This document shows, piece after piece, positions 32,346 to 62,306 of a stretch of DNA of 64,000 nucleotides. Source of the stretch: Yuukianura sp. NJ FZ-2021 (lineage: Eukaryota). The translations under genes and the position numbers were made by a program. The first letter of the stretch is position 1, and every line of letters begins with the position of its first letter. The notes under the pieces were generated by a model. It searched no databases, had not been told where the DNA came from, and worked only from the letters and a program-made list of their open reading frames with translations. Location of the stretch: assembly GCA_046563655.1 (NCBI GenBank), contig CM102288.1, positions 1,798,001-1,862,000 on the forward strand. The letters run 5' to 3'.

Positions 32346-32919
32346 CCGTTAACTCGTAAAAGCAATGTGGAATGTTAATTGAATTATCATATTTTGTTCA
32401 CCTCTGGATCACCTATGAAACAAACACAAGTATAGAAACATCTTCAGATTCTGGACATTGTGGGCACTGCGAAGGGCATTGAGAGGTCGATGCCCTCGTA
32501 GGTCCATACCCACCTCGGATATTCTTAGAAAAACTTAAAAATACTGTTCTTAGAACAGAAAAAGGGTGATGGACTTTGGCATTTGGCTAATAAAAGAAAT
32601 AAGGGGAGGCTTCGTATGAAAGGCTTCGTTGGAGAATGCAAAGCGTCAGTCCTTTTCCGAACTTCAAGGTCAATACGAGTCAGTCGACTAGAACTGTCCA
32701 CTGACTGCTGCAACTGACTGCACTGCAAGTCCAATTTGCAACTAATTACACGTAAGGTAGAATCATGGATTGTATGAACATTCATTACAAAATTAGATTA
32801 GCGAACTCCTTTACCTTATAACTGGAACGTCCTTCCAGAAGGAAGACGGAGTAGTGAAAAACTAGTTGTACTGGAAAGTCGTAATAAAATTCATAATAAG
32901 AGAACCTAACATAACTAAA

Positions 32920-33275: not shown

Positions 33276-33365
33276 GCAATGGTCTATGAATCTAAATTCT
33301 GAGTAAGAATAAATAAAGGTTAATTGCGATATATTAATTAACAAAGTTGAAGTTGTAGAAACGAT

Positions 33366-33522
33366 TTGGCTGGAGTCTAGTTTTGTAGTCTGTTTTTCTT
33401 TCAGTCCATGAGTTAGGTTATCAAATCAGGAAGTGCACGACGCACTGTGCACCTTCAACACCTAACCTAACCTAACTTAGGGACTAAAAGAAAAACAGAC
33501 TACAAAACTAGACTCCAACCAA
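33366..33522. mobile_element. MITE-like element with ~42-bp terminal inverted repeats and internal TTAGG/CCTAA tracts
   Basis: ttggctggagtctagttttgtagtctgtttttctttcagtcc pairs with ggactaaaagaaaaacagactacaaaactagactccaaccaa (2 mismatches). Confidence 0.75.
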
Positions 33523-34794
33523 CTATTTTCGTACCATTTTTGAATTGGGATTGAGTCTGAGTGTAAAGTAATCTCCGTCATGAAGTCGTATATGACATAG
33601 TTTTGGTTGACTCCTTCCGGTGTGAGGCCAATTTCAACCAAAGTGCCATTGGCAGCTACTACTCCTGGTACTGGCGCAACAATGCTGAATACAGTTGATC
33701 AGAACGTGGCCATTTAGCTCTGATAGCTCCTAAAAAACTAAAAGTTAATCAAAAGTTAACGTTGATTGGCATTGATTAATGAATAACCTCTTTACCTCTT
33801 CATAAACGTTTTGATAATTTTGGTACTGCGGGACATTGTGGAAGTGGAACTTGGAGTTGCCCATTAGGGGAAGTGGGACAAAGTTCAGAATTGGGGATAG
33901 GTCGAGTGAGCAATCCATCTTCATGATGGTCAGCCCTCACCATTTGAGGATTCCACAGGGACGAGAATACGAGCCAAGGTTGAACAGTTCAACTTGAACT
34001 TAGGAACAACAATCAATCAATTGTTAAAATCCAGTTAAACAATTGAATGTTTTAACATACGAATTTCATTACCTTCTTTAGTTGATGGTCTGGCTGTCCA
34101 TGAAAAACAAAATTAACTGTGATTCGATTAATTAATCAATTTAATTACATGAATTTGAAATTTAATCCATCGATTTTTGTGTTTTCGTTTTGGCATTGGT
34201 TTGTTTGTTAGGAGACCCAACCAAGTTTTTCGCTCACTCACTCTCACTCAAACTAGGTTGGGCCGGGTTCCCCCTCATTTTACCTTAACACAGAGGAGAT
34301 AGGAATCCGGCGGATTCCGCCAGGTTTGAGCAGGGGCTTCTGTTGCAAAACGCGAATTATGAATGATATTGATGAATGTTTTTTTTTGTACTAATCGTCG
34401 TGAAAAAAGCTTAAGAACGATTATTATTTAATAAAAAAGATTTGAATTAATTATTAAAATGCAATTAACTTCACTAAATTTTAAACAAAAACGCAACTAG
34501 TAAAAGCAAAGTAAAAATAATGAATAAGCATTTAATGTAAAGAAAAGTCGACAACACGAAATTAATTAAAATTCATTCAACAGCGTTTCAGCAACTTTTT
34601 GCTTATAAAGCATAAAAATCAAAAACAGCAAAAAAACTATTTACAGCAAAAAGCAAAGCATCGACTTTTAAAAAGCGCTTTTTACGTAGCATGAGGGAAA
34701 ACGCACCAAAACTTTGTGGTCATGTCATATGTCAAGGTGGACACGAAGGGCAACAAAATGGCCACCGGTCATAACGGAAACTCATTACCATAAC

Positions 34795-35005
34795 AGTAGA
34801 TGGTAGGGTAGGGCTTTCACGCAAAACAAACTTTCGACCCATAACCTTTTGCAACCACTGCCGTTAACTTCTTAATTAACACTTCCTCATACACACAACA
34901 CCTAATAATCCTTAATAATTAGTCTTAAGGATTTCACACCAGTGGTTTCCAAAGCTTATGGATCCAAAGATTGTTTGGCGTGAAAGTACTACCCTACCAT
35001 CTACT
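34795..35005. mobile_element. MITE-like element with ~66-bp imperfect terminal inverted repeats
   Basis: agtagatggtagggtagggctttcacgcaaaacaaa...caaccactg pairs with cagtggttt...tgtttggcgtgaaagtactaccctaccatctact. Confidence 0.75.
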
Positions 35006-35494
35006 ACCATTACCCTACGACAGTACCATTAAGGCGAATTGCGATGGTTCATGTGGGGGTGAGTTGGGAGGAAAAGTGAAGGGAACTCGGACGGAGTATT
35101 GGTTTGTTTTTTACTAAAGTTCATAACTTCTTGTTTCGCCAGAATTTTCAAATTCGTTCCCACACTTTTATCTCACGCTCAAGAATAGATTCTGTCTAAT
35201 CCTCAGATAAAACTGAAACTTCTGACACAATTACCTCAGGATGAGACAACCATTGCACTTTTCCGTGAGACAAAAGCGCAGGAAACCTTTCGAAAAATTC
35301 ATATGCCAATATACTAATGAAAACAAAAATCCTCGTATGTCGGAAAGCACAATGACATTGGTAAGTGCCAGGTACTTTTTGACATGTGACCTTGACCCTT
35401 GTATTGAATCAGTAAATTTTAACGAACCATAAAATATCCTATTTAATTGTGTCAGCTTCAAAAGGAAGTAATTACAGTAGATTAGAAAAAACAG

Positions 35495-36928
35495 CTATTT
35501 ACTGCTGCTGTCGCTTCTGTCTGGATCGTTGACAATCTTGTCATCATCTGGAAAGTACGGATGGGGCCCAATTTCGTCGTCCTCGTCTTGTCCAGCCGAA
35601 GGTGGAGGTCGATCCGGCTCTTCCTCGCTGCTACTGCTGGCATCATCATCCGAATCTTCTGACCTAGTTTGTCCATGCTCCGATTCCATTGCTTCTTCAT
35701 TCGGCTCGAACTGAATTGGTACAGTTTCTTTGGAAATGGTGGCTGGATCAACCGGAGGTTGATCATCATCGTCATCCCCTGAATCTGGACTGTTCGGTTC
35801 CACTTGGGGCATTTCCTCATCACGGTGGTTCTGTTGCTCGTCATTTTGAACTGGTGGTTCAGTATTGTTGTCAGCGACGGAGTCCTCTTCATTCGGCTTT
35901 TGAAGGAAGAAGCGACGAACACGACGTCGAATCCTAGATCCACTTCGGTCGCTCTGTGCGTCACTGACAATGAATTTCAGTTGAGCCAGCTCTGCTGATT
36001 TTTCGTACTTGATTAATTCCTTGGATTGACAGGCGAGTTCAAGTTCAAAGTTCTTGCTCACAAGAGCTACCCACGAGTTTTGAAGTCTTTGTAATTCTTC
36101 GCCCGCTTTCAGTTGACCATTCTTTCGACTCCAATTCAGTTCTTGGATGTCGCGTCTAAAACAAAAGAACTACGAATCAGCTTCCGTATCTGGTAATTAC
36201 GTTTATTTAAGTAATATCGCTTACTTGAGATTTTGATGTAGCGCTTGAGCCTGTTTAACCATTCGATTCAGCACGTTGAGGTAGGACTTCCAGCCCTCCA
36301 CTCCACAATCTAGCATCAGTTCCAGATTAGCAATTCTGTAATTGAAAATTACGAAAATCATAACTTTCATGAGTAAAAGTTGTACTCAGAATTACGTAGG
36401 CTCGAAATAGCACCTTGTAGCTTGGTGTTCCAGTTGTGCATAAGAATTGTCGAGACATTCTGTCCAAGCAGTGATGTCCATAAGCTTTCCAGGCGGCGGC
36501 GGAGGTAACTCGTAACGTTTCATGCTCAGAGTTTCCATTGGAATACGCTGCCCAATTCGTTCATACTCGTTCTTCATTATTTCCGTCTAAACAAAAGGTC
36601 ATAAGGTTTACAGTTAATCAAACACAGATAAAAACGTTAAGCTTCACACTTACTTCGAACCGATGAAGCTCCAAAGGCGGAAGATGTTCCAAGTAATTCT
36701 TAATTGGTCTATATCTCCGTTTCTCTTCTTCGATCATCTCTGTCACCTACAAATCATTCATCGTTAAGTAAAATATCACATGTACTACATGAAGTATCGA
36801 TTCCTTACCATTTCCTTCATGCCGGGTTCATCGTATTCGCTGTCAATGTATGGCAAGGCATCAACAAGCACTGGCTCCCTATCTCTCGCAGTCTTTCTCG
36901 ATTCAGGACCTTCTGTAAGACTCAACAT
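35495..36928 (-). CDS. BCAS2: Pre-mRNA splicing factor SPF27/BCAS2 with long acidic C-terminal extension, multi-exon
   Basis: [81 protein letters not shown] and [15 protein letters not shown]. Confidence 0.93.
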
Positions 36929-37989: not shown

Positions 37990-38165
37990 TACAGATTTTT
38001 AAGAAAAAAGTGTTTTTACAACAGCGAATTTTTAAAAATCCATTTTTTTCTGAAAGACAATTGGAAGTATAAGGGCCCTTAAGGTACTCAAGGCCTCTGA
38101 AGTCTTTAAGTTTACAAAGGTTAGGAAAAAGACTAACATAAAGTTTACTTTAACACTTTTGAATT

Positions 38166-38930
38166 TTACCACGGTCTCCACGGTGCCTTGTCCATGTCAC
38201 GGTCACCGTGCTGAAATGTGCTGTAGTTGTAAATGATTGATTCTTGTGGTGACGATGGTGGCGTGTACGGTCGGTAGCCAGAATCAACGGATCCAGAAGG
38301 TGACACACTGGAGTGCTGAATTGTCATGGCGGATGGTGATGATGGTGACGATGGTGATCGGTTGCCACAAGATGACATTTGGTTCAATGCAGTTCCAAGG
38401 TGAATCATCATGGAAGTGCCCACTTGAATGTCAATTGCTGGTGATTGGGCTGCCAGTGCTCGTGATACTTCTTGAGCACATTTTTCATATCCAGCTCTGA
38501 ACCGTTCGTCGTCTCCGATTGGTCGAGAGGCTTTGGCTTGTGCTTCCAGCTCGGCAGCATTTTGTTGTGACTGGAGTTTATGGAGATGTCGGACAGTGAG
38601 TTCCAAAATGTCGGCTTTTTCTAGTCTGGCGACATTTTCACCTTCCGCTTGTAGCCCGTTGATCAAAATGTCTTTGAGTTCATCCAGGCAGCGATTGATT
38701 CGAGCACGACGTTGTCGCTCTAGTAAAGGTTTGGTGACCTACAAACAAAAAAATTGCGACACTTAGACATTTTGTACTAAAATTTTTAGTTGAACTGTCC
38801 CTTTGGTATCTGAGTATGAAATTTTGAAATTTTTTGAAAAATTTACCTTTCTGTACTGCATTGTTCGTGAAATTGGTTCCGGACTTTGCTGCTGTCCGAA
38901 AGCTCTGGAGATATCGGTCAATGGAGCCAT
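38166..38930 (-). CDS. E(spl): Enhancer of split bHLH-Orange-WRPW repressor (bHLH2-like), 218 aa; exons 38930-38847 and 38738-38166
   Basis: [48 protein letters not shown]; Orange domain RFRAGYEKCAQEVSR; terminal WRPW*. Confidence 0.95.
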
Positions 38931-39207
38931 GACTTTTCTGGATACTGGAGACTTTTTGCTAAATGCTGGATACTGGATGCTGGATGCTGTTCAACACAAA
39001 GTTGATTTTTAGTAAAAGCACGTTGTGTACTTGGTTTAGTTTGAGTTAGCTGTGGATGTTGCTTGTTCGGAAGCTGGATTTGGATTGAAGTTGTGTTGGA
39101 GGGAGTTGGTGTTTTTAAGGGCGCGGGGCTCGTTCGGCGGGCGACTGACTTGAGGTTGTGAGTTGGAATCCTACTCGTGGTTTTTTGGTTGTGCGTGTGC
39201 GATGCCC

Positions 39208-39266
39208 AGGGCCCTTGGAGGAGTGCAGAGGGGGGCCCTTGGAGGAGTGCAGAGGGGCCCTTGGAG
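39208..39266. repeat. ~24-bp tandem repeat (2.5 copies) in the E(spl) promoter
   Basis: (g)ggcccttggaggagtgcagag units. Confidence 0.8.
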
Positions 39267-39315
39267 TGTGGATTCCTTTTGAAGGGTGCCAGGTGTTGAG
39301 CAGGGAAGGAAAAAC

Positions 39316-39359
39316 CGTGAGAACGAAACTGATTTTGTTAGCGGTGCACCGTTCCCACG
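39316..39359. promoter_or_regulatory. Head-to-head Su(H)/CSL site pair (28-bp spacer) upstream of the E(spl) gene
   Basis: CGTGAGAA-N28-TTCCCACG. Confidence 0.75.
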
Positions 39360-41602
39360 GTCCCTTCCGAAATCCGAAGAAAGCAGCAAGCCCACATGCT
39401 CCCTTGGATTCCAACGCATCAAAAAATAAGGCACCAGCAGAAGGACTGGAAAAGAAGAAAAAAATTATGAAAAGAAAAGATGAAAAAAGTTTCTGGAAAT
39501 TCAGGCAGAGACACACGCAGTCACACGGCCCAACATCCGACACTTTATGACCAAAAACATTCAATAAACAACGAAAAAAGTCATCAAATGTAAAATTGAT
39601 TAAGAAAATTGATAATTTAAGTTAATTTAAATTGATGATTGAAAAATGATAAGAAAATTTTAAAAGTGTGGTGAGGGTGAGACATTTCGCAAATGAAAAG
39701 AAAATTATTACAAAAGTAAGTTTTGTTTAGCAAAGTTTCAAACTTTTTGAAAAAAAAATATAAAGAAAATAGAAATTTTTCAGAGTGTTGTGAAAGGTAC
39801 GTGTGTGGTTTTGTTAACTTTAGAAACATTAGGAAGAAAGTCATTCGTTTTGAAAATTTTGGATTTCTGGTTTCTGGATTTCTCAATCTTTGTTAACTTC
39901 TTTTGAGTTTTGATTGTTTTTGAAAATCTCGTCGAATTTTTTTTTCAATTTTTTTCTTTCAAAATTTTGGACTTCGGCATATCTTTTCGGGAAGTTTTTT
40001 TGACAAAGTACAAAACAAGTGGAGGAACAGGTTTAAAGGTTGGAGTTCTGTTTTTGTCATTTGAATTTACATCTTACTGCGGAAGATTGGAACAACCCAA
40101 GTGAGTGTTAAAACAAGTTTTGTTTTGATTTTAAACAATTTTGGAAATTGAATTTGAACAAGGGCCAGATTAGGTTTAGGAGGCCCTTAAGGCCTCTTTG
40201 AATTCTCACGAAAACACGTTTTGTCCATTTCCAGTTCCAATTTAAACTGAGACGACAGTGGAAATGGGACCATTACTTTAATTAACAAAAATTACTCAAG
40301 TGACCAACTGAACAAAATGGACCAGCACACAAAACATCATCATCATCCTTAACTCTAACTTTTCAAAAAACAGATTTTTCGAAAGATTAAAATCACAATT
40401 TACAATTAACTTTTACTGCTAAATCTTATGGTCCTCCATTTTGAGAGTTTTATCTCCAGTATTTTCAAAAACATAATTTTTAATTTTTGAAGAAAATGTA
40501 ATGAATTCTTCCAAAAACTTCACTTTTTCTCTGGAATGCGCCATGGTAGGCAGATTGTGAATAAAATTCCAATACGAATCGAATCGGTCCTGCTTCACAG
40601 ATGCAGTTTTTCATAAAAAGAACAAAAGAAAATTTTGAAATCCATTGACTACTTCCAATAATTTGAATTTCGATGGGGGAAGATCAATTGCTTCCGGCAC
40701 AAGCAAACTCTCACTCTCCATCTTCCAGGAATTTCGTACATCCCGCATGTCCAGAAAAATTCCAATCCACACTAAGTAAAAAAATGTATAGGAATTCATT
40801 AACTTCAATATTTAAATTAATGCGTACTGTAAAAAATCATTTATTAAAATAAAATTATGAATTATAATAAACTAGAGAAAGTATCAAATCAACTATTCTC
40901 GTCTTTCACCTTAATTCAACTGAGTGATTACGGAGTATGAAAATGCAGAAAACTTTTTCCAACTTTTTTCCGATATGAAATCCAACACAATCCAAAATTT
41001 AAAAAAAAATCTCGTCATTTTTGAAATTTCATTTCCGTACGAAATTTTGTGAAAAACATTTTCTACTATCAATTACTTAGTTTTACAGTTTCGAGTTCAT
41101 GCTGGTTTCTATTAATCCATAGGCATGGATTAATTTTTTAATGGCTGCAGCTAATTATAAATAACTTTTAAATTTTCAAAAACAACAAAATAAAATTATT
41201 ATTATAATTATTATAATAATAAAACAGTAGAAACCTTTTAAAGTGAAATACATAATAATTTACTTATTGAAGATTGAGAAAGAATTTAAAAACTAAAACA
41301 GAAGATAAAAAAATTTTTTTTTGCTACAACAACAAAAAGAAATTACTACTAATTCCAATTTTTTCAAAATTTGTTTTAATTAAAGTTATTTGTGGTGTTT
41401 GGAGTGGCATAACAAATCAAACTAGTTTTTTAAACAAAAATTTTTTATAACTGGTTTTTTTGTGTCTAAAGTTGTGGCGGGTAGCTGAACGGAAGGTTTA
41501 GAGGTCAAAGGTCCCGGAATGCTGGAGCCTTTGGCTGGTGGTTAATTTTTTGTGTACTTTTTGAAATCCTGAACCGTGGACCGTGTGTTCGTCGTGTGTT
41601 TG

Positions 41603-41671
41603 GCAGGTGGAGAGTCGTACGTTTTGGGAAAAGGAAGCCGTGGGAACGAAGTCAACTTGAGCGTTCCCACG
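41603..41671. promoter_or_regulatory. SPS+A-type Notch/proneural enhancer
   Basis: Proneural E-box GCAGGTG (41603-41609) followed by CGTGGGAA-N17-TTCCCACG (41639-41671). Confidence 0.85.
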
Positions 41672-43079
41672 GTTCCAAAGTCCTCTTTTCTAAGGGTACC
41701 AGAGGACCCTTAATTTGGAAACCGAGGGAAAACATGTGGCTGCCTCACTCCGTCTTCATCTCTTCTTTTATGTTCAAACACAAGATTATTCAGAACAAGA
41801 AAAGATCCAAAGAAACCATCAATCGTATCTTAACACTCCATCTCTAGGAACAAAATTTTAAAGGAAAAAATCAAATAAGCAGAAAATCTTCAAATTCTAA
41901 AGATTTTATGTCAAGAAAAACGAAAAAAACGAAATCTGGTTTCATCCCCCAACTTTGCTCAAACTCAAACTTTAGTCAGCATCAAATTCAAAATCACAAA
42001 ATTTCACACACAAAATCCAATTTTTTTTTGAAATGATGAGAAAATTGTATGTTGAAGACGTTAGATAGTGTTAGGTACTTAGCATTAGAGATGATGATCT
42101 TGTGACGGTGGTTGCGTCAGCATCAAAAGTGTGGGATAGAATGTTAGTGAGGTCATACGGTGACCTCTGACCTCCGTCAGCATCCGTCCCACGCTTCTTC
42201 CTTCTTTTGAAGCGTCTTAAAATCGCCGCCATAGTTTAACTTTTTAGTTAGAGTATTATTGACAGTTGTAAATAAATGGTGGTGTGAGCAGTGCTGATTC
42301 AGGATGCTTCCCAGTGTTTCTCAAACAACGTTACGCATTTTACAGATCTCATCACTTTTAATGTTATGGTGTGACGGTGGTGTTAGTTGGTTAATTGCCA
42401 CGTTCTCACGCTCCAGCTTCTGTTAACTTTACTTTCAAAACGCCTTCTGCATCTCAATTTCAAATGTTTTTGGTAGTACTTAAAAGTCACTTGATTTTGT
42501 CGATGAGAGATCGACTGCCAGAAGATAAGTTCAAATTGAAAGATGCCAAATAAGACCCATGATCAATTTCAAAAGATAAGCTTGATTGATATTTCTGCAA
42601 TTTCGAAATTATTTTTTTCAAAGTGGGTTTTTTTTGAAAAGTCGCCGAACAAGAAAACCAAATTTTATGACTTTCTACAATGTCTTAAGTCTTTGGCGGT
42701 CCTCAAAAAAATGTAAGCACACGGTAAAAGATGTGCGCTGTATAAATATTTTTGAAAGCAAAACTTGAGTCCCTTGACTTGCAAATCTAGTTAGTTATGT
42801 AGAATTTAGGTGAACTAGCGAATTACGAAATTCGGAAACAGGTTTTTCATACTTTTTGAAAATTCATTGGTTTATGAAAACGATTTTTTTTTGAAAATGT
42901 GTCGAAATTTGACTTCCATTACGCCAAAATGGTTTGATGGATTTTTCTCTTTGAGGATTTCGAGTTTCACTTTTCCTTTCTCCGTGATTGATTCAACTTT
43001 GATTTGATTTGGAAATGGAAATTTTATTTTTTGGAAAAGCGAAAGTACCCTTAAGGGACAAATATTTCATATGCAGCAA

Positions 43080-43090
43080 GGCACGTGCTA
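43080..43090. promoter_or_regulatory. ESE-box-like E(spl) bHLH binding site
   Basis: GGCACGTGCTA, 11/12 match to TGGCACGTGYYA. Confidence 0.5.
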
Positions 43091-46000
43091 CTGCACTTGA
43101 CAAAGTCACTGCAGCTACCACGGTGCTTGCACACGCAGAACCGCTTTCAAAATGATACGCACAGACCATGCACCCTTGACACTCAAGGGACGCCTTAATT
43201 TAATTCACTCCACTCGACATAGCCTATTTTTTGTTTGTTCAAAATCCAACATGCTGCTGGGTTCAATTTTTCAAAAATTCAATTCCAATGATGCATTTCG
43301 GTCATCAATTGATTCTGATCCTGCCACACTTCCAGTCCATAAATTTTTTTTCAGAATTTTGGAAATTTGAGTGACTACCTTAACAGTTGCCCTGAACCCA
43401 CAAGTAGGATTCAGCAGACGAACATGAGAAAATTTTTCCTTATAGTTTCATAATTTTTTTCCAGAATTGATGAAAACGAAAACCATGAGATTCCAATTGA
43501 TTTTCGAAATTTCGAAAGGACGACAATCAAATTCTGAAATTGTTTGAAAAAAGGCGAATCCAAGTTTGGAAATTTTTGAAAAGCGACTCGAATTTGGAAA
43601 TTTTTGAAAGAGGCGACTCAAATTTCGTAGCCATAACTTGGTTAAGCGCTTGTTAGAACTGTGAAGGAACGGAAATTACAAACACTTTAAGAACAGAATC
43701 GATTTGAACCGCGCCGCCGTGTTAGCTTGCCTCCTTGAAACGATTTGAAATGTATCAGAAAATGGGCTTCTTCTGGATTGTGTCTCAAAGAAAAGATTTT
43801 GTTAGATTGCAAAATAGGATAAGGCTGTTCCATTGTTGTGCTCGGCCAAGGGCCCCCCTCCGCCAGCCCCCCACTTCTTTAGTCCGTGGCCAAACTTTTG
43901 GCCACTTGTTGGCCGTGGAGGGTCTCAGGAACAATAGGGGGCCCTTCGACCCCAAAATTCCTCAAGTTTCCACTCATGTTTAGGTTAGGTACTTCCTAAG
44001 GGCCTCGACGCTAAGGCTCTTCAATTACTCAACCCCCTAACCTAAGTGTACTTCTTTTCACTTACTCAAACGAAGGGCCCTTTACACGTGTCCTCAAATA
44101 AGTTGACACTTTGACTCTCAAAATTTTCAAAATTCGAGGCAAACAAAGAGAGAAATGAAAAGGAGGCCAACTTCCGCCTCTTTCTGCCACAGCAGACTGC
44201 CTTTTCAGGTCAAAGGTCACGCCGCCCTTAAAGTCCTCCCCCAAGGGGTCACTTTGGCCTACCACAAAAAAAATGAGTTTCAAAACTAAACTTTTCTTTG
44301 CTTGTCACTTTTGAAATTCTTACAGCAAAATTTTGAAATTTCTGATTATTTTCAAAAATTTTGATTCCGGTTAAAAAATTTATGATTTGAACTACCGAAG
44401 TTTTGCCGTTTTAATTAGTTAATGCTTTGCGAGCTTCGGAGTTATAAGATCCTGTTATGAAAATTCATAAAAAGTTTCGTTCAAAAACCTAAAATTTTGA
44501 AAAAGTCTAGCTTTTCTTTTTGAAAATGTTGTTCAAACAGAAGTGTTTTGAATGTGTATCGTGTTTGGGACAGTTTGGAAGTGATTATTAAGGTATTTGG
44601 TTGTTAGCTTGCTGCTTAAGGTCAAAGGGCCCCCTTCCCTGCTCCTCTTCCCGGTAGGTTTAGTTAGGCTAACGTTAGGTTTGTTAGGCTAAGGCTAGGT
44701 TGCTTAGGCTAAGGTTAGGTTGATGGTCTCTTAATTTCAGTCTTCTTGCTGGATAACATTGTTCATTGTGCCCAGTGAGTGAAGGAATAAGCTGTGAAGG
44801 TAATTGTTATTGGAGGAACAATTACTCGTCTCTTTCAGTAAATACTCAGATTGAATGTCTAAGCCTTAGCCTTAAGGGAGAGCTTAAGGGCCTCCATGTA
44901 CCCTTACAATCTTCCCGCGTCTTTTCTTATGGACCAACCTTGTTTAAAAATCATTTTAAACTCGGAGAACGCACAGAACAGAGCACATTATTGTGTCCAG
45001 GGCCTTCGTTTTCTATTCAAAGTCCCTTAGAAATCCACTCCATGTCAAAGGCAATTGAAGGGACCTCGTTTCTCTTTTCAAAGGGGCCACTTTTTCAAAA
45101 TTTTATTTTATTCATCATTACATACAAACCAAAAATTTGAAAAGAAACTGAGAAAAACGTTTCTTGAAAGCCAAGAAGTGTAGCAAAGGCTGTACTTTCT
45201 TTGTCCTCTCTTTTACGGCATCTTCGGTTAGGTTAAGTGAAGATGATGGGGACCCTTAAGGGAGCCTGGAAAATGGACCCTTTACTGACGCTATCCGCCC
45301 ACTTCCTCCTTCCAGGACAAAAAAGTTTTACAACAGTTCAAAACCAAATTTTGAAATTTTCTTTTTAGAAAATGAGCTTTCGTCCACTGAAGCGTAAATT
45401 TGAAGAAATAAGCGTATCTAATTCTCTAATCTGCCCCATTTCTTATAGTCAGCAGCACGGCCGTTTTCTCATGCTTAAAATGAAAAAAAAGTTGAAAAAA
45501 AGTTTGGAATTGAATGAGTTTTTGTGAACAATGAAATCACGACACCACCACCGAAAAGAAAAAACAGCCTTAAAATACGCCCAAACTTAACAATGAAGGA
45601 CTTGATAAAATTGGTTTTCATAATTTTTCACAAATAAAATTTCAAAAAAAAAAACGAACTTCGGTTTTAGCCAAAAATCAAAAAAAGCTGGCGGGGTTAC
45701 GCTTGACCTCAGTTGACCTTTGACCTCTTCCGCTAAATTGCTGAATTCCATAGTACTTGAACAGTAACTAGAATTGGATTTTATTGTAATTATGGGTTTG
45801 TAAAATTTCAAAATTTTGGCATATAATTTATTGCCGTTTCAAAAAAAAAATTATTTCGTGAAAAATTTCATAAGTGTCGAAGACAGTTTGGAACAAATGA
45901 AACCGTTTAATTTTGACTCCTTAGTTTTTAAAAATAAAGCAAAATTTAAATTTTGAAAAAATCAATTTTGATCTTTCACAAAATGTTGCAATTTGCGTTT

Positions 46001-46370
46001 AAAAAAAAAGTAAAGTTAAAAGTTTTTTTTTGAGTAAATAACGCTTTAGTAATAACGAAATCCAAAACACCCGAAGAAAAAACCAGTTTGAAATTCCAAT
46101 GTTCAGTTCATAAAGAAATCTGTTTGAGATCTTTTTAATTTATTCACAATTTTGAATTTTCATTGTTGTTTTTGTTGAGTTTTTTTTAACAAAGGTATTT
46201 GATGAGTATCCCATCTGTTGTCTTTGCATTCCTCTGCGCCCCTAATGTTAAACACATAGCATAACAATTACTGTGCCTCTCTCAGAGTTAAATCTTACTT
46301 TTTAACATTTTGAGATTTGTTGTAAAAATATTTTCTAAAATCAACTTAAAAGTTTAAACTTAACAAAAAT

Positions 46371-46378
46371 TATCACAG
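46371..46378 (-). promoter_or_regulatory. K box in the 3' UTR of the Bearded-like gene
   Basis: Minus-strand CTGTGATA, ~135 nt after the stop codon. Confidence 0.7.
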
Positions 46379-46512
46379 GTTTCAGATGAAAGAGATGATT
46401 GAACAAAAACTTAAATTTAACATAAGTGAACCTAGGATTGAACGGTGCAGTGATTTGTGGTTTAAAAACAAAATCAAAATTTTGAAAAATTTTGAGGAAA
46501 GAGATTTTTTCT

Positions 46513-47260
46513 TTAGAAAAGTGAGTCGTTTGAACTCCCATAGGAAGATGAGTAGTAAGAGGAAGATGAGAACGTGGGAGATGCTGTTGTGTAGCGAAGT
46601 GATCTCTTTGCAATTCTGATTCTGCGCATGGGTGGTGGTGGAGATGGGGTGACCGTGTCATGGTGGAAGGACAGCAGTGGACCACGTCCATCAATGTCAC
46701 TTTCCCAATGGTTCGTCAACAGTCCACGACCGTAGTCAGATGAGGTCGATGACATACGACATCGCTGTTCCAGAAGTTCGTTGATTCGGTTTTGCTCAAG
46801 TTCGGCAGCAAAAGTGACTTCAATGTCGTCAGTGTTGTCGGTTGAACCGGTTCGGGTGTTGAGTTTGCTCAGAAGTGACCAGTAGCGGTTCAAGTTGATT
46901 CGTGCCGTTTTGGCAATTCGTCGAAACGGATTCACTCGAAATCCCTGAGAAAAAATTTCAAAAAATTTATAAATTTTTTGTTTTCGAAAATTTCAGTTTT
47001 GTAAAAATTTTGAATGTAAAAGAACTCGTGCCTGACGCTTCTGCACCAGCACCAGCGTCATTTTGTCTCAAATTGCCAAAATGTTGCTGATTTTGAATCA
47101 AAGTTCGAAAATTCCTCAAATTTTGAAAGTGTCAGAACAAAATGTTAATTTTTTTTTGAAAACTTACAGATTTTGAGGATTGTTGAGCAGTTTGTTGAGA
47201 CTGGGACTTGACGTCCATGATGGCCACTGAGGTTGCGTATTGCTTGACGTTATGGCACAT
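46513..47260 (-). CDS. Divergent Bearded-family / E(spl)m-alpha-like protein, 174 aa; exons 47260-47168 and 46944-46513
   Basis: caaaATG start, phase-0 gtaagt...ctcag intron, basic amphipathic segment NPFRRIAKTARINLNRYWSLLSKL, N-motif EQNRINELLE, K box in the 3' UTR, located between two E(spl) bHLH genes. Confidence 0.72.
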
Positions 47261-49255
47261 TTTGAAGCGTTAGTGTTCAAAATCCTTTACTGTTTCTAGT
47301 AACTGGAAATTTCAGTTTTTTGAATATACTGCGGAGGTTGCAAGTACTTTGGAGCTTAGAAGTTGCTTGTTTGGAAGCTGTGGTTGGAATGCTGGGCAGA
47401 GGGGACTCGGAACGACTTTTAAGAGGGCCATGAATTTGGGGGCCTAGCGAACGTGTCAGGTGGTGTGCCGAGCACACGATGAGGAAGAAGGGGGCCCTTC
47501 GCAGGGCCTCCAAGGCCTCGCTCCAAGGGACCTACCCTGTCCCTTCCCTTACACGTTTCTGGTTAAGTCCCCGGGGAGTTCAGGAACTAACTGAATCTGA
47601 GTGTGGTCGTTAACAGTAGACTTTAGCTTAATCTTTCAAAATTTCGAATCATTTTCAAAATTTTCAAATCAATTTTTAAAATGTCCAAAATCCTAACTGG
47701 AATCAAGGCGACCTGTAAGCTTCCGTGACAATAAAATACTTGGCAAATAACTTCTTAAAATCTTCTCAATGGAATTAAACTTTGACATACACTATTCCCA
47801 TCAATCGATATTCGACTTTCACTTAATTCATGAAAGGTTCCCGTTAATCGAAGTTTGTCTTAACTAATTAACTTAACTCATTGAACTTTTAAACTTCAAT
47901 TTCAAAAATGAAACGTATTTTAGGAACTCGGGTCATGTCACGCCATGTTTTTTCCCGCCAAAACGGCGTGGTTTTTCCTACAGGTTGAAACACGTTTTTG
48001 GGAAGAAGGGACCCTTTAAGGGCTCTGCTTGAAATCGTTGGGAAAACGACTTAGGGATTGTATTTTTTGTTAACAAAAGATGCAGAGGAAGATCGTAATC
48101 TGTTTTGTAGAGACGTTTTTAAGGGAGTAGTGAAGGCCTCATGCTCACCTGCCTCCAATCTCACAAGAATCCCTCCTAAGTGGACCACTTTATGCAGCCA
48201 GACACCTAAGAAATACCTTAACAACCTATGTCGTAGTCCCACCAAAGTCCCACCTTCTTCTATGTCTAAGGTGGGGCATGGTGGCTTTCTAGCATCCAAT
48301 GTTGAAATTTGGCTTGATTTTTATAGTTTTTTTGAAGATTTGAGTAAAGTGAAAGTGATTCGGCGGGTGAAAGTCAAGTTAAAATTTGCGTGGATTGGCT
48401 TTGAGGTGGACCACGACAAGGGTGGATAAAAGCCTGGGAAAATTTTTGGTGCGGGAGGTTTGCTTTTGTTAAATCCGGATTCTGGTTCTGGTTGTTCTGT
48501 TGTGCTCATTGTTTTGTTTGAAATGGAAATGAAGGTTCATCATGCAATCTGATCCTAAACCAGAGATGAACATGATGAAATTTATCCTACTGTTCTCTCA
48601 AGTTGTAAATTCTAACTACATCTACTAATTGAAATTTCAAATAGACAGAAAAGAGAAAGACGAGCATAATTTCCCACAAGAAAAAATGTTTTCCAAAAAC
48701 ATTTTTTGGAAAACAGGAGAAAAATATCTAGACACTATAACTTTTTAATTCAAGATTGTTGTGAACTGTGACACGCTGGATGGAATTAGAATTTATTTTG
48801 AATTTACATTGCATTTGCAAATCCGTCACTTTTCCAGAATGCAAAAACCGTTTTTCAAGTTCGCATAAATTTTCGTAATTTTGAGGCGCGTAAACACTCC
48901 GTTTTACGTAATGTTTACTTTCATACGAAAAAGATCCGCTACATTCATTTTTTTTAAAAAGTCATTCCAGAAAATTGACGTCAAATTTTAGCTTTAAGTT
49001 TTGACGAGACGAAAGAAAGTTTTTTAAACCGAACCAGTTTCTCTACTACGTTGTGTTTTCCTTGACCTTGACCCGGGGGTCAACTATTTGTGGAAAGAAC
49101 TTGAAACTAGTTAGACTAGTGTTAATTAGTTGTGTGCTTCTGTTGACCCCTTGGGCGGGGGAGAGGGTACTTTGGGGGGTACTTGGTGTAAGGGGGGAGG
49201 CGGAAGGGGAAGGGCTGCGTCTGTCTGTGTAGTTGGATCTTTCAATTGTTAGGAT

Positions 49256-49287
49256 CGTGGGAAAGGGCTTCTCTTTGGTCTCCCACA
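49256..49287. promoter_or_regulatory. Paired Su(H) site (16-bp spacer, one cryptic half-site)
   Basis: CGTGGGAA-N16-CTCCCACA; additional CATGGGAA (~49445) and TTCCCACG (49522-49529) nearby. Confidence 0.7.
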
Positions 49288-51710
49288 CTTCTCCCGCATC
49301 TTCAAATCTTGTTGTGCACAAAGGACTCAACACACGTCCCTACCCAAATAACTTACAGATGAATACTGGGACTGGTTCCTTGGAAGAAGAAGAAGCTCGT
49401 GCCAAGGCAACCAACTGCCTAGCATCTTCCCCCTCCGCATCTTCATGGGAACTCATCTGCACTCTCTTCAAAAGATCCCATTTCAGCCGAATTCCACAAC
49501 TCAAAAGCAATTAACTACCCGTTCCCACGCTTCTGATCTCCCAACCATCCACACTCTGTCACTCAACAACACACGTCCTATGCTCTTAATACACAAAGGA
49601 CAGACGCTCTGACACAATTTGGCACAAAAACATAACTGAAAAATGACTTGGTAAACTTTACCATGTTTCCAAATTTTGACATTTTGAAGATCGAAAACGA
49701 AAAAAAAATTGACCAAAAACATTAAGACACGATGACAAAATTGAACAAACTGAAAAATTAGAAAACAAAGTTTTGGTAAAGCTAGATTTTTTTTAATCAA
49801 ACGCCTTCGTTTCTATACACAATTTCGAAAAAAATTTCGTTCACTTTTTCAAATTTTTGTTTCTAAGGTCAGAGGTCATCACAGTTCCAGTTTTAATGAG
49901 CGCTTGACTCCGATTAGTTTAAACTGCAGTTGGAATTGATGAACTTTAAAGTGTGAAATGTCAATGCTAGACATTGGAACTGTCAAGGTCACTTTTAGCG
50001 GTTCATGCTAGTTTGGTTAAATTTCAAAGATTTTTGTCAAAAAATGCAAACTAAAGCAGTTTTTCTACCCAAAAAGGCCATAAAAGTATAGAAGCTGTGA
50101 AAAGTGATCTAAGGACGACATTAGTTAAAACAGTTGTGAAATATACGTCAATCCACAGTGGTTTTGCACAAGTGCAACTAAAAATTTAGTCTAAAACTGC
50201 TACTATATGTAATCGAATGTGTCATGTTCATATGAGGTTCATACTTACTACCTCACTTCATGTGGCTTCACCATGTTTCAAAAGTGTTTATTATTTATGC
50301 GAATCTTGATTAATGATTAAGGTTAAAACACGAGCTACAATTTCGCAAGCATCAAGCACTGCACTTTTTAGCCAAAAAGTAGCCTAGGAACTGGACACGC
50401 GCTTAAAAGCACTATTCAAAAAAATGACGTTCGTTCTAATCATCAAAAAATACAAAGTCACAATACGTGACGCTGGCGCAGCAAAGGTCAGAAGGCCAGG
50501 CGTCGCGTCAAATTTCTCAGAATTGGTCATTTTTCTAAGAAAATTGTCTAAGCTTCTAACTTTTTTGAAATCCTGTTCAGAACAAAGCATCGAGTGTTCC
50601 ACTTTTTTCAAAATTCTAAAAAAGAAATTAGAGTTGACAGGCATGACGGAGAAAAGGACGCTACCGGTCACTTTGGTCCTAATCCAAGTTTTAGAAATTG
50701 TAAAGTTTTAAGGGCCCTTAATTTGAAGTACCTTCTCAGAATTTTTTGAAAAAAAGGGCGGGGCTGTTTCAAATTTTGAACAGGTCAGGTGAAAAACAAG
50801 GCGGAGTACTTTGAAGGGCTCTGCTGCAGTCGAGGATAAGACATCGTGAGGTCTTTGGCGTCACTATCTGTTCATAGCTGGAGGTTCCATGACAAAGTGA
50901 TGAGTCTTCGGTGACAGGTTGAGGTCAAAGGTCACTGTCATAGTGATAGAACTTACTGATGACATTAAAGTAAAGCACGAAGCAACAAAGTTGACCTGAC
51001 ACATTAAGGCTGCTGGCTGGACGCTGATCCAGAACTTTTCAACTGAAACTTATCATTGCGTAACTTTTCTAGAAGGAACGACGAGTGACTAAAGCAGTGA
51101 TAAAGTTCTCTAGAGAACACGCCTAACCTAGTTGCAAATTGCAATCCGGATGTAGCTACACGAACTGTTGCAAATTTGTTCAAAATTTAAATTTCAATTT
51201 ATTTTTTCCAAAATTTTGAAGAAAAAGTTCTGAAATAGCATGTAACTCTATCTTTGTTTTGATTCCGCTATTTTTGATTATGTTTTGATCTTTTAGAGTA
51301 AAAAAAAAATAATTTTGTTTTTCATTTGCGAGAAATAATTTTTTTTATGGTCGGCGTTGAAGTAATGAGAGTAAAATTGCTATATAGAACTCGAATTTTG
51401 GAAAAAATTTCGTTGTTTTTGAAAATTTTGATTTTTTTTTTAATTGTCAATTTTTGTTCGGTTCTGCTATTTTTGGTGTAAATTACACTACTCGCAGTAC
51501 GGGATTAACTTGAATTAAAATTGTTTTTTTTTTAAATTAGTGCTTATTTCTTTTATTTATGACCGGCGTGAAACTCATGGAAGCCGAATTTTTTGAAATT
51601 CATTTTAGTTTCAAAATTTCAGTTTTTCTTTTCAAAATCTTGTCTTTCTTGTGTTTCCTTAATGTTAGGTGCGTGAGTCATTTTTTGTGCCGTAAGTGTT
51701 GATTGAGTGA

Positions 51711-51771
51711 GCAGCTGGAAGGTGGTTCGTTTGGGCTTTTAAGAAGCGTGGGAAGCTCCTTCGTTCCCACG
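51711..51771. promoter_or_regulatory. Proneural E-box plus short-spacer Su(H) palindrome upstream of the second E(spl) gene
   Basis: GCAGCTG (51711-51717); CGTGGGAA-N9-TTCCCACG (51747-51771). Confidence 0.75.
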
Positions 51772-52131
51772 CTTCTGAACAACAACAAGCTTCCGAAAAA
51801 AAATAACATACCTGAAGCCATCCACACTCCAGGAACAAAAAAAAATTCGAAAAAAACCCACCCACCAGTTCCGACTAAAACCTGAAAAAAAATCTGAAGA
51901 TGCGAAAGAGACGCCCGTTCGAATCCACCCGCCCCCAAAAACACTTAAATCTTGTTCAAACTGGCCCTAAATTAGCTTCCTAGTTAAACTTAAATAACAG
52001 TATTTCAAAAACATTTTAAAATTTTAACTTCAGAAGAACATCCTAGTGGTAACGTCAATGTGTTGCTGATTTTCATAAGGACGGTAATTACGAGCGTCAC
52101 TTCTGGGTTCATTTTGAATGCAAATTAGTCA

Positions 52132-52330
52132 AGTTCACACTTTGCTCAATTACTTTTTCCAAAATTTTAAGTACTCTGCTAAGTTCTACTTCAAAATTTT
52201 AACATTTTGCATATTTCTTTTTCCAAATTTTAACACTGGTCACCATTTTCAAAATTTTACCACTCTGCTCAAATTGCTTTCAAAGTTTAAACAGCTGCTC
52301 TGTTTCACGTGGTTTCAAAATTTTAACACT
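52132..52330. repeat. Degenerate ~30-bp tandem repeat
   Basis: Recurrent ttcaaaattttaacactctgctc-like units. Confidence 0.55.
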
Positions 52331-52960
52331 TTACAGAATTACTTTTTTTTTCAAAATTTCTGGATTGTGGGGTCCTCCGGAAATCACAATTTGGAAGTTG
52401 CAAGCATTATGCACAGTAGCGGCTGTCTGACGACTGCTCACACGGTGCCAGCGACATTTCAGCAAGGCGTAGAAATTTTCAAGGAATCTTATTTTTGGAT
52501 TTTGAAAAAACGAAAAAACAAACATTTTTTTTTGCTGTGTTTGTGGCGTAGCCGCCTTCTACAGTAGCAGATTTTTTTGCTTACGGAGATAATTTTTTCC
52601 GGGAGGAACTTTCCCCCGGATTTAGTGTAATAATAATTGTTTAGAGCTACTGTGCTAGGAAACCACGCCCCCTTTTATGCCGGTACAGCAGTAAGTTAGG
52701 ACTAAGTTAGTGTTAAGCCTAACCTTATTCTCCTTATGCACTTAACATTGGTAGTGGTGAGCACAGGCAACCTGAAGAGAGGTTTAAGGCCGAGACTCCC
52801 GCAGTTTGTGGCTCATTCAATCCACAGACGCCGTGAGAGATTGAGTTAAGGAATTTCATCTTCTAGGGGAACAAGTAGTGCAAGTGCATCTGAAAATTAA
52901 GCGAAAGCTAGAGTAACCTTTGACCTTCTTGTGTCTTGCGACTGACAATCATAGCCAATC

Positions 52961-53979
52961 ATGGCATCTTCAGTTATCACTCAAGAGGAACAACCAATCT
53001 CAAGAACTTACCAATACAGAAAGGTAAACTACAAATTTCAAGTTTTCAAAAAAAAAATCCAATTTCGTTTCAAAATTTCCATTTTCGTAAAAACCACGTA
53101 GTAGAACTTACGCAATGGAACTACTATGTTTGGCTTGATTGCACAATTCCACTGAAAAAAAAACGAGAATTGACAATTTCTGAAGAAAAAATTGTGAAAG
53201 TAGAAAGAATTGGTGAAAGTCGGAGAAAATACAGAGAGTTTTTTTTTGTGAAAACAAAAATACCGGGTTTTCTTTTCTACTTTTTCGGACTTTCTGTTTT
53301 CGTTTCTTTTTTTTCTAAATTTTGAACTTTTTTTTGACTTTAGGTTATGAAACCTATGTTGGAGCGGAAGCGTCGTGCTCGAATCAACCGATGTCTGGAC
53401 GAACTGAAAGAGTTGCTCGTCGGTGCACTTCAAGCCGAAGGTGAAAGTGTTTCCCGCTTAGAGAAAGCAGACGTTCTGGAGCTCACTGTGCGCCATCTAC
53501 ACAAACTACGCAGGTCACATCAACTTTCAGAAAATGTCGCCGCAGATCGATTCCGAGCCGGATTTTCACACTGTGCCAATGAAGTAGCCAAGTACGTGTC
53601 AACAGTTCCCTCTGCCATGGACGTCACAATCTCCGCTAGACTGCTGAACCACCTCGATGGCTGTCTTCGTCCCACCAATCAAGTTCAAGTAGTTGACCCA
53701 CCAAATGGTGGCTTCAGTCCCACCCAAAATCATGGTCCGCACCCACAACGCTCATCGCCACGCCTTGTCATCACGAACTACAACACGCCACCGTCGTCAC
53801 CCCAAGGTTCGTCCGTTATGTCACCAGTTGGGTACAACAAACCGAGTCCTGCGCATGCTCAAGCAGCTTTCTGGCCAATGACCTACGCCCATCCAAAACA
53901 CGAGGTCAATGACCTTGAGATGATGCACAGCGAAGAGCCGTTTGACCTCTCCAGCGGATCTGTCTGGCGACCATGGTGA
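52961..53979 (+). CDS. E(spl): Enhancer of split bHLH-Orange-WRPW repressor (m-beta/bHLH1-like), 232 aa; exons 52961-53023 and 53344-53979
   Basis: [51 protein letters not shown]; Orange domain [17 protein letters not shown]; terminal VWRPW*; K-box core TGTGAT at 54518-54523. Confidence 0.96.
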
Positions 53980-56572
53980 CTTCCAGCGATTATGTTCAGC
54001 GATCAGCGATTTTCAGTGACAAAGAAACAGCAACCAGCCTAATCATGCCCAGCCATTAATCAATTAATTAACTAATTTAATTAGTTAATTTATTTAAAAA
54101 GGTCCATCCAAACTTCGAGTGTCTTTCAAGAACAACTTTCACTGTGTAAACTTTTTTCCTTGGAGAAAGTCAAGTGCCTTGTCAAATCACTTCCAAGTTA
54201 AAAGTTTTTAGACAATGCAGGAAATTTTATTTTAAAAATTTAACTTTTAAGGTTAATTATTCTTAGTTTATTTTTAAGTTTAGTTATTTTTTCATTTATG
54301 AAAACAAGAAAGCGTTAATTGACAATCATGTCTTAAGTTTAAGGAAACTTTAAGTTGAAGAGCCATTCAGCTTTTGTTTTTACTTTTAAGTTTTACAATT
54401 AAGTTTTTAATTTTAATTTACATTAATTTTTAGTTAGTTAAACAGTCAACTTCAGTTTGAATCAAGAAATGCGTGTGCTGACAATCAAATCATTTTAGGA
54501 AAAGAATCAGTTGTAATTGTGATTTCTTTAACTTTTAACGGGGAAAAGTTTTTTGAAACTTAAAAAACGTAAATTGCTAAAAAAGTCGAAATTATGACCA
54601 ACATTTTCTAAAGAAAATTTTTTGTACAAAGTTCCTCTGAAGTTAGTTTTTACAAAAGCCAACTTCCATGTAATCAGTAACTACAATTGAAATTGTTAGT
54701 AACTTAAATACGTCAATTATTTAAGTTTTATTAAAACTTTTCTGTAAGAAAAACTTTACTTCCGACTTTCTCCGGATTTTTTACTTTCATCAACAAAAGT
54801 TTTGCGAAGAATTTTTAAACAATTTCGAAAAAGATTTTCGAAAAATTTCTGATTCCACATTGTAGCAAATCGTACGAAGAATTCCGTCGTTAGGTAGAAT
54901 TTTTTTTTTTTTTTTCGCAGTTGTTGTTTTTTTTTCTCGCAAATTTAGAATTTGCGTAGTGTTTTCCTTTTCCGCAGCTTTTTTTTTCAGAGAGAACGAC
55001 AACTACGTCGTTATTCAATTCAACACGGGAAAGTTTTTTAAAATTTCCTTCCATATTTTTTCAACGCGTCACTAGAAATAGACGTCTGTCGTATTCCGAC
55101 AGTTATTTTCATCACTTCGTCTTGCCGTAATGGTTTGCGTTATACATGGTGGAGCTGAGCCACCATGGTGGGGCTGCATCTCTGTGCATACGTCAGGTCA
55201 CCTTGAAATCAGTATGGATTATGTCATCTTATGAAATGTCGGGTCATAAGTCAGTGTTTCAGCCCCACCCTGGCACAAATTGTCGCCAAGTATCAATTTC
55301 CTCGGATTTTGGCATTCGCTAAAAACCATAAGTCCGGTGATCTGATGCAAAATTGGAAAAGTTATACAAATTTCTGCGGAACTTGTTTTTGAAAAATTTC
55401 CAGAGGCGACGCCTAGTTTTAGGTTAACTTTGGCTGATTACTGGGCATGACGATTGTTATGGCTCAATTCTGCGGAACGCGGGTCCTCAATGACTTCGCT
55501 GGCTATGTGCTGGTTCTGCAGAACTTCATTGTGGAAAGCCTGCTGCTTTACAAGTGACGACAATGTGGTTCAATCCATTATCTTGTACATTTTTTGTGTC
55601 ATAATCTAGACCACTTGTGCCATGGACACTCGTCCTGGATTGCTGCTGTGGATTACATTTGTATTTGGATATGAAATGTACCTCATGCCTTCCAGTTCCA
55701 TCAAACAATTGGTTATTATTCCAATTACACTGGGCAAAATGATAAACCTCATCCAGAACCACACTCCAGCTTCCCACCACCAATTCTATGCACTCCAATT
55801 CCCCCGCACCCGAACTCTATTTGTTCTAAAACACTCAATTTATAAATTCAAAGAAGTTTTTAGAAAAATATTTCAAACAAAAAACTTCCGAAAAAGTGTT
55901 GGAAAAAATATGAATTTCTCAGATCGAGATTCCAGATGCTGAACAGAACAAAAGAGAATTTTCACTCAATAAAAATTATGCATAAGTTGGACGCCAATCA
56001 AAAAAATTCCTACTTTCACCTACAAAAATTTTTTGGGTGAAAGTTTTTCTGGGTCTTTCTACCCCAATTATTGAAGCTTGGAAGTTGAAACTTCCTTTTT
56101 GAAGTTCATGGTGAGTTGCATTTCGAGGAAAGCATTGTTTTGTTTTAAAAATGTTTAGAAAAAGTAGTTTTAAACCGAATTTGAACTGAAAAAAAATGAA
56201 AGGAAGAATTGGTTATTGGACTGTTGATTGATTTGACCGGTCAGAAGCACCTTGATCTGGTCTTAGGAAGATCCGCATGTGGGAGATCTCTGAGCAAAAA
56301 TCGCAGAAAGTTGTTATTCTCCTATACTTTATGAATCCTAATTACTCACGTGCTCCTCCCATCTTCAGCAGAGATCATCTTGAGGAGGATGCTGATGCAG
56401 GGAAGAAGACAGGTGAGTTAATTGGAAGGTTGAGGCTATTTTTTGTGTCTCTCTTGTGGCAGTGGAGTCTCTCGCCTGCCTGAGTCATAGAGATTAGGTT
56501 AGGCTGAAGTGGTTTCGTAAACAAGGACCGACTAACTGCTTCCCTTCTTCCTTTGAAGATCATTCCAACGTC

Positions 56573-56604
56573 TGTGGGAATGGAAACGAAGACGCGTTCC
56601 CACG
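56573..56604. promoter_or_regulatory. Canonical paired Su(H) site downstream of the complex
   Basis: TGTGGGAA-N16-TTCCCACG. Confidence 0.8.
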
Positions 56605-56784
56605 CTCCTTCACTAAGAGCCCAAGGCATCTTAACATCCCATGGCACTCTGCCCATTGTCTCCTTTAACAATCACACCCCACCCCCCTCCGTCAAGACCC
56701 CCCTTCACATCCATTAACCAAAATAATCCTCACCCACTTGCTCCTGGACCTACGTTCAGCCCACCTCACGACCGTAGCAGTGGT

Positions 56785-57094
56785 CATAACAGCCAAATCA
56801 AAAACAGTCGATACCAAAAAAGCCAATTTCCAAAACAGTTGGTGTCATAAGAGCCAATTCCAAAATAGCCAATTGATAAAACATCGCACAACAAGACTTT
56901 AGTACTTTAACTTTAACTTCCTTAAATTGGGTTAGGTAAGTTTAGCACTTGTAAATTCAGTTTTCAAAACGACTTGTTTGTAGGTTTCTTGATTTATTTT
57001 AACAATTGGCGCTTTTGGATTTGTCGTTTATGGCCTCGTTTTCTTAAGGAAATTGGCTGTTTTGGCATTGGCTCTGTTTGATTTGGCTGTTATG
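56785..57094. mobile_element. MITE/foldback-like element with ~90-bp imperfect inverted arms made of ~15-bp subrepeats
   Basis: cataacagccaaatcaaa...gccaattg pairs with caattggc...tttgatttggctgttatg. Confidence 0.7.
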
Positions 57095-61708: not shown

Positions 61709-62306
61709 AAAGGATATGGCCCAAAGTCCATAAGAAAGTTGTCCCGGTGGTATTCGAATGAAATTTTTACCAGTTGTTAGGGTCAATACTGGGATTATAT
61801 TTGCAAATTTTCAGACTCCTAGAAACGATAGGTCACGGGTAATGGGGGGTCAAAGGTCACCATGTCATCCTATGACGACCCCATGCAAGTAGCATATCGT
61901 TGGAACGGGCTTGACCTCCTGATTCAGGATATGTATATATGTCGTTATCTACGACGTAAGACAACAAAGTTACTGCGATTTTAATTTTAAAGCCCATATC
62001 GCAATTGATCTCCAATTTCCGACTGCGATATATTATATGGAGTAACTTTGTTGTCTTACGTCGTAGATAACGACATATATACATATCCTGAATCAGGAGG
62101 ACAAGCCCGTTCCAACGATATGCGACTTGCATGGGGTCGTCATAGGATGACATGGTGACCTTTGACCCCCCATTACCCGTGACCTATCGTTTCTAAGAGT
62201 CTGAAAATTTGCAAATATGATCCCAGTATTGAACCTAACAACTGGTAAAAATTTCATTCGAATACCACCGGGACAACTTTCTTATGGACTTTGGGCCATC
62301 TCCTTT
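61709..62306. mobile_element. Foldback/MITE element: two 266-bp inverted arms with a 66-bp spacer
   Basis: 61709-61974 is the reverse complement of 62041-62306, with about 6 mismatches counted by eye. Confidence 0.92.

Follow-up and report, generated by a model that had tools for sequence, protein, structure and literature searches.

A small NxxN protein encoded in an E(spl) complex, its unnamed pancrustacean family and a candidate role as competitor for Neuralized

A two-exon gene between two E(spl) bHLH genes

In the window (the whole stretch of 64,000 nucleotides from Yuukianura sp. NJ FZ-2021 analysed here), a small gene was found between two E(spl) bHLH-Orange-WRPW genes, A and B (Table 1). 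Reading of open reading frames and splice sites gave a gene of two exons on the minus strand, encoding 174 amino acids from an ATG at position 47260. In a genome-wide comparison with gene A, A and B came first, followed by two hairy/deadpan-type genes on C3. Gene B is probably of the her type, judging from unlabelled rows in the PMC4575448 supplement. In the available parts of the literature, a bHLH gene head-to-head with m-alpha is the reported ancestral core of the complex (PMC1310631), and the beetle complex is described as her, m-alpha and bHLH2 (PMC4575448). The linkage between a gene of this kind and E(spl) genes is known from this genome alone. The two hairy/deadpan-type bHLH-WRPW genes on C3 (C3:14901000-14912200; L006 and L007) also stand head-to-head, about 9 kb apart. 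This pair was used as a control and had none of the family motifs described below between its two genes.

Table 1 Features of the locus, with positions counted from the first nucleotide of the window
Feature	Position	Strand	Comment
Gene B, E(spl) bHLH-Orange-WRPW	38166..38930	-	intron 38846-38739; 3' flank with K box and Brd box
K box 8-mer	46371..46378	-	135 nt after the stop
Exon 2 (P0001)	46513..46944	-	143 codons and stop; frame kept relative to L002
Terminal Asp-Ser-hydrophobic motif of the springtail-type group	46516..46533	-	Ser invariant in 20/20 alignment rows
C-terminus first described as novel	46590..46735	-	also in P0003 and L002; frame intact
In-frame loss of net 30 nt compared with L002	46730..46770	-	second NxxN of springtail-type relatives missing
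Acidic NxxN motif, candidate Neuralized-binding site	46768..46803	-	both Asn conserved
Family block (basic stretch and RINLNxxW helix)	46858..46944	-	less diverged relatives resemble the basic region and helix 1 of E(spl) here; model helix 18-32
Intron	46945..47167	-	GT-AG, phase 0, 223 nt; aligned codon is that of the basic-region intron in E(spl) and hairy-type genes
Exon 1	47168..47260	-	31 codons, starts Met-Cys; counterpart first exons in L002, L004 and L005
TATA-like box and initiator-like motif	47386..47423	-	about 31 nt apart; in 3/4 loci, absent in L005
18-nt promoter-proximal element with E-box core	47452..47469	-	190 nt upstream of the ATG
Proneural-type E-box	48146..48152	-	
Five high-affinity Su(H) sites	48671..51771		in the 5.7-kb upstream region common to the window gene and gene A; paired site 49256-49287
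Gene A, E(spl) bHLH-Orange-WRPW	52961..53979	+	head-to-head with the window gene; intron 53024-53343

No further Bearded-like gene was found in the window, and the DNA pattern of the Bearded G motif, run genome-wide, matched three T-rich repeats only. Searches with P0001 or P0006 found no second family member in the genome, a count to be taken as a lower bound. Elsewhere in the window, positions 31400-32350 and 35480-36550 form a tandem duplication about 4.1-4.2 kb apart and about 90% identical, one copy of which matches Pfam BCAS2 and then runs into an acidic tail. A near-perfect inverted repeat lies at 61709-62306 (266-nt arms, 98% complementary, 66-nt spacer), with smaller ones at 33358-33530 and 34795-35005.

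The intron proposed in the initial annotation was borne out, since its donor and acceptor positions and its phase were identical in 3/3 related loci containing exon 1 (L002, L004 and L005); L003, which comes without upstream DNA, stood outside this comparison. The GC content was 0.29 in the intron against 0.46 and 0.49 in the exons. A frameshift had been suspected near position 46700. The alignment of positions 46735-46630 with L002 was gap-free, with differences at 5/35, 6/35 and 17/36 of codon positions 1, 2 and 3, and this third-position excess extended across the whole of exon 2, the disputed stretch included. The splice site, the promoter element, the K box and the frame were all conserved in relatives, so that a frameshift could be ruled out; the gap-free alignment and the third-position excess together imply that the C-terminus is real. 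Nor is that C-terminus peculiar to the window gene, as first thought, for two close relatives, P0003 and L002, have it too. On this sequence evidence, the gene is real.

The window protein has one single NxxN motif, at exon-2 residues 52-55, which was present as described at the outset and has an acidic flank. A second NxxN occurs in 24/24 springtail-type proteins; the window gene is 30 nt shorter than L002 at this place, and the alignment indicates that the window protein has lost a motif that its springtail-type relatives keep. The proline/basic stretch and the Ser/Tyr tail noted earlier were also found. The AlphaFold2 model contained two helices (residues 18-32 and 38-68) with a short loop between them, the remainder being disordered (pTM 0.28). 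The basic amphipathic helix of the initial annotation was weakly supported: residues 5-15 are basic and have the top hydrophobic moment of the window protein (0.88, net charge +4), but the best moment of residues 7-28 was equalled by 35% of shuffles of that stretch, and the first modelled helix begins only at residue 18. Searches of solved structures, by sequence and by fold, returned no significant match, and the ESM Atlas no usable one. The window protein stops one residue before most relatives, which alters the spacing of the terminal Ser-hydrophobic motif (46516-46533, minus strand), a motif that may be a PDZ ligand. The Asp-Ser-hydrophobic terminus was absent from crustacean and insect members of the family.

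Several regulatory elements accompany the gene and its relatives. The K box 8-mer lay 115-280 nt past the stop in 5/5 loci, with about 0.005 expected at each, and its only other occurrence in the window was 3' of gene B; over the first 400 nt past the stop, Brd and GY boxes were found in 0/5 loci. A cluster on C3 (C3:8016258-8017431, L020) encodes four miR-2 hairpins whose 8-mer is complementary to the K box, and according to the available text of PMC1309705, miR-2 targets the K boxes of E(spl) and Bearded genes. The 18-nt element with the E-box core was identical in 4/4 loci with upstream DNA (the window, L002, L004 and L005) and occurs as a single copy in the genome. The TATA-like and initiator-like labels follow consensus sequences and are presumptive. 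An E-box near Su(H) sites was also seen upstream in L004 and L005. Positions 38001-57000, a region chosen after the Su(H) sites had been seen and scanned with patterns as in PMC3261227, contained 13 Su(H) sites against 3.0 in shuffles (13 reached in 0/200); it also had three paired sites, whereas 200 shuffles gave none. Over the whole window there were 18 sites against 10.45 in shuffles (18 reached in 1/100). A paired site with 17-nt spacing and an E-box lies at 41603-41671, upstream of gene B at a distance of 2.7 kb. Another pair, spaced by 16 nt, lies at 56573-56604, downstream of gene A at a distance of 2.6 kb; no neighbouring coding gene was found. At 51747-51771, the two sites of an inverted high-affinity pair are only 9 nt apart, compared with 15-17 nt in known paired sites.

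An unnamed pancrustacean family

A search with exon 2 recovered three relatives; a profile of these gave 31 proteins (E up to 10). Four loci came from a metagenome scan. A profile of 21 sequences then retrieved 147 representatives at E up to 0.001. The 182 retrieved proteins include some redundancy and eight accepted at E above 0.01 on motif order. A RINLNxxW-type core, the most conserved block of the family, was present in 160/182, and 70/160 of the family proteins start with Met-Cys. Downstream of the core, NxxN followed by an acidic residue occurred in 125/160 (mean 17 and maximum 27 in shuffles), acidic residues also preceding the motif. The 35/160 relatives without NxxN[ED] within 110 residues include 6 incomplete sequences.

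The family covers springtails (XP_021950314 from Folsomia, ODM94094 and CAL8095337 from Orchesella, CAG7824858 from Allacma), a copepod (XP_059084861, Tigriopus), a decapod (KAK3858922, Petrolisthes) and four insect orders, represented by a cockroach (XP_069705797, Periplaneta), a thrips (XP_026294352, Frankliniella), a leafhopper (KAG8293025, Homalodisca) and a beetle (KAJ3646038, Zophobas). The four insects were identified by looking up ten further members, the other six being without an organism name. The gene is thus not lineage-specific, as it had been called. Database members share with the window protein the same two conserved blocks in the same order, with tails that differ by lineage, and all are annotated as hypothetical, unnamed or uncharacterised. 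In a tree built from 58 of 120 eligible rows and 79 columns, the window protein nested with the Folsomia, Orchesella and Allacma proteins (100/100), on a branch of 0.41 against 0.013 for its sister P0003; this placement points to a springtail as the probable source. A third protein search with a wide alignment added further unnamed proteins only. A literature search, mostly at the level of titles and abstracts, found no description of such a family or of a bHLH origin for Bearded genes, and earlier surveys may list members; the PMC4575448 supplements had no match to the family motifs or the G motif.

Comparison with Bearded and E(spl) proteins

The window protein was compared, by motif definitions and a Pfam profile, with the Bearded family as represented by Drosophila E(spl)m-alpha, m4, Tom, Ocho and Brd, Bombyx Em4 and Pfam PF15952 (ESM4). 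Similarly to Bearded proteins, it is small and has a basic N-terminal stretch followed by an acidic NxxN motif; its gene is part of an E(spl) complex, where it faces a bHLH gene head-to-head, and is accompanied by Su(H) sites, an E-box and a K box. Unlike them, it has no motif 3 (G), no terminal D motif and no ESM4 match, and neither a Brd nor a GY box occurs in the first 400 nt after the stop of its gene. It has instead the RINLNxxW block, which the available parts of the Bearded literature do not describe, and a Ser-rich tail with a terminal motif of its own. The G motif (motif 3) and the terminal D motif were defined after PMC2760746, and the numbering of Bearded motifs follows the available text of bioRxiv 2025.09.29.679213.

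The initial annotation was right that the G motif and a DRWxQA-type D terminus are absent: neither was found in any frame of the window, and 0/160 family proteins have a G or D motif. Its expectation that homology searches would probably miss the gene held for Pfam ESM4, which gave no match in the 12, 4, 21 and 134 proteins scanned. With these two absences, descent from Bearded is only a possibility. The label Bearded-like is supported for the role, by context (place in the E(spl) complex, conserved NxxN, K box and Su(H) sites); for a diverged canonical Bearded protein it stays conjectural, profile searches having reached no protein with a G or D motif. Judged by this context, the protein most likely works like Bearded. 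Brd itself is not known to have a G motif. We moderately favour the combined reading that the gene is a member of an unnamed pancrustacean family, one separate from canonical m-alpha/m4/Tom, and that its product competes for Neuralized.

The resemblance to E(spl) bHLH proteins lies in the less diverged relatives. When relatives were aligned locally with gene A residues 13-80, 79/160 scored above the 99th percentile of shuffles; the same test gave 49/160 for gene B and 8/160 for a hairy-type protein, and the window protein's own score was at background (26). None of 613 real 68-residue control windows reached the family median of 43 (top control 35; family maximum, reached once, 70). With gaps placed by us, the best relative matched spliced gene A at 18/25 positions, the median over 137 being 11/25 and the window protein matching at 8. 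When 2,129 segments were ranked by a family profile, spliced gene A came second, with a score reached by 0/2,891 scored shuffles and an E value of 0.033, followed by a chance segment at 0.05; the score of gene B was reached by 11/2,826 shuffles. A springtail-only profile had neither gene among its top eight, and hhalign of the family against HES proteins gave a probability of only 1.4-4.5%.

The gene structures also agree. A phase-0 intron precedes the aligned codon in 4/4 HES genes read and in 4/4 family loci with both exons, a correspondence that depends on aligning the first nine codons of exon 2 without gaps. Read-through of an acceptor usually gives Gln, and Gln stands at the intron offset in 25/135 predicted proteins, against 0-6 at other offsets, although some of these Gln are genuine residues. 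The family's invariant Asn, Trp and Leu align to the Asn-x-x-Leu-x-x-Leu pattern of helix 1. Beyond helix 1, the NxxN window matched E(spl) helix 2 only loosely (rank 1-19 of 206-289 windows; scores -11.7 to 0.4). Through its relatives, then, it is likely that the N-terminal block of the family derives from the basic region and helix 1 of an E(spl) bHLH protein; a weak hint points to helix 2 as the source of the NxxN motif. The family also has the intron codon, the cluster and the regulation in common with E(spl)/HES bHLH-Orange-WRPW genes. The family differs in four extra basic-region residues and in having no convincing helix 2, and the window protein has no Orange domain, WRPW or HLH Pfam match; its sequence marks the window gene as not a bHLH-Orange protein.

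These data bear on two other explanations. The protein could be a relic bHLH that acts as a nuclear dominant-negative partner in the manner of Emc/Id, without Orange or WRPW, its helices binding E(spl), proneural or Daughterless proteins. The helix-1 pattern, the two modelled helices with their short loop and the loose helix-2 likeness of the NxxN window fit this, but the scores for helix 2 lie around or below zero, the position of a core Leu in helix 2 is taken by Asn, HLH Pfam gave no match in the 21 and 134 proteins scanned, and the model has a low pTM. We regard it as unlikely. A bHLH-partner role nevertheless keeps some probability, because RINLNxxW, the best-conserved block, is not explained by competition for Neuralized.

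The gene could also be a true m-alpha orthologue that has lost motifs 3 and 4, with the E(spl) likeness reflecting convergence of a short basic helix. It does occupy the m-alpha position, with no other Bearded-like gene in the window and none revealed by the genome-wide G-motif pattern; the low hhalign probability and the background score of the window protein would agree with convergence. The graded similarity to gene A, gene B and the hairy-type protein and the shared intron codon would be unexpected from convergence. Moreover, the family is also present in Frankliniella and Homalodisca, where the available text of PMC4575448 reports, by BLAST/HMMER, a four-gene complex with m-alpha. This co-occurrence suggests two gene classes, although the family genes could be identical to the m-alpha genes reported. 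On balance, orthology to m-alpha seems improbable to us.

A more far-reaching reading is that the family is an intermediate, a duplicated E(spl) bHLH gene ancestral to the canonical Bearded genes. Such a gene would have retained its exons, its regulation and helix 1 while DNA binding, Orange and WRPW disappeared, and it would have acquired a Neuralized-binding NxxN, for which helix 2 may have been the source. We put this forward only as a tentative possibility.

A candidate competitor for Neuralized

The moderately favoured reading is of a small and mostly disordered competitor for the E3 ligase Neuralized, induced by Notch and damped by miR-2. Su(H) and proneural factors, whose sites are present, would switch the gene on in signal-receiving cells, and microRNAs of the miR-2 family, whose genes are present together with the K box, would damp its mRNA. 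The acidic NxxN motif would then occupy the NHR domain of Neuralized and keep it off the NxxN in the tail of Delta, so lowering Delta signalling from that cell. In the available parts of PMC12678834 and PMC5412571, NxxN is the Neuralized-binding consensus in Delta and Bearded proteins, and it is by means of such motifs that, in Drosophila, Bearded proteins compete with Delta for the NHR domain. Binding here is extrapolated from Drosophila, and all three motifs or domains are present in this genome: a gene with two NHR domains and a RING-like domain lies on C8, its first NHR domain spread over three exons, and a DSL gene on C4 has NxxN just past the transmembrane stretch. Against competition stand the brevity of NxxN, which is only a four-residue pattern, the 35/160 relatives without NxxN[ED], the lost second NxxN of the window protein, the missing G and D motifs and ESM4 match, the conserved RINLNxxW block, linkage to E(spl) genes in this genome only, and the sharing of the Su(H) sites with gene A in a region selected after these had been seen.

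Instead of being a pure competitor, the protein might be a Neuralized substrate or adaptor, as is Stardust, or a link to a partner through its terminal motif. NxxN marks substrates too (available text of PMC5412571), canonical Bearded proteins bind a second partner through motif 3 (available text of bioRxiv 2025.09.29.679213), and the terminal motif is conserved among springtail-type proteins. It is missing, though, in crustacean and insect members, and the regulatory signature fits Bearded and E(spl) genes, which leaves this explanation with a small chance. That the gene is a pseudogene, or that an assembly frameshift masks a canonical C-terminus, is extremely improbable: the long branch and the lost second NxxN would suit decay, but the splice sites, promoter element and K box are intact, the third-position excess runs throughout exon 2, and the other frames hold no G or D motif.

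The E(spl) complex is described, in the available text of PMC4575448, as two completely different protein classes brought together by association and not by duplication; the same source reports that no m-alpha was found in the copepod Eurytemora and calls such genes hard to find. In the complex of the springtail Holacanthella, no bearded-class gene was found (PMC5644144). The gene described here supplies a searchable signature for a second class missed by canonical queries, together with insect candidates. If its first block is derived from a bHLH protein, a Notch antagonist would have arisen from a Notch effector, a hint at the origin of the E(spl) complex. Were the family indeed an intermediate, the complex would owe its origin to duplication, not to unrelated genes becoming associated, and this class would have been overlooked in lineages for which an absence of Bearded genes is reported (a springtail and a copepod).

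A subgroup of the family (P0127, P0136, P0140, P0157-P0159, P0161, P0162, P0165, P0169, P0172 and P0173) keeps the first block without NxxN; from their sequences, these are possibly members that do not bind Neuralized.
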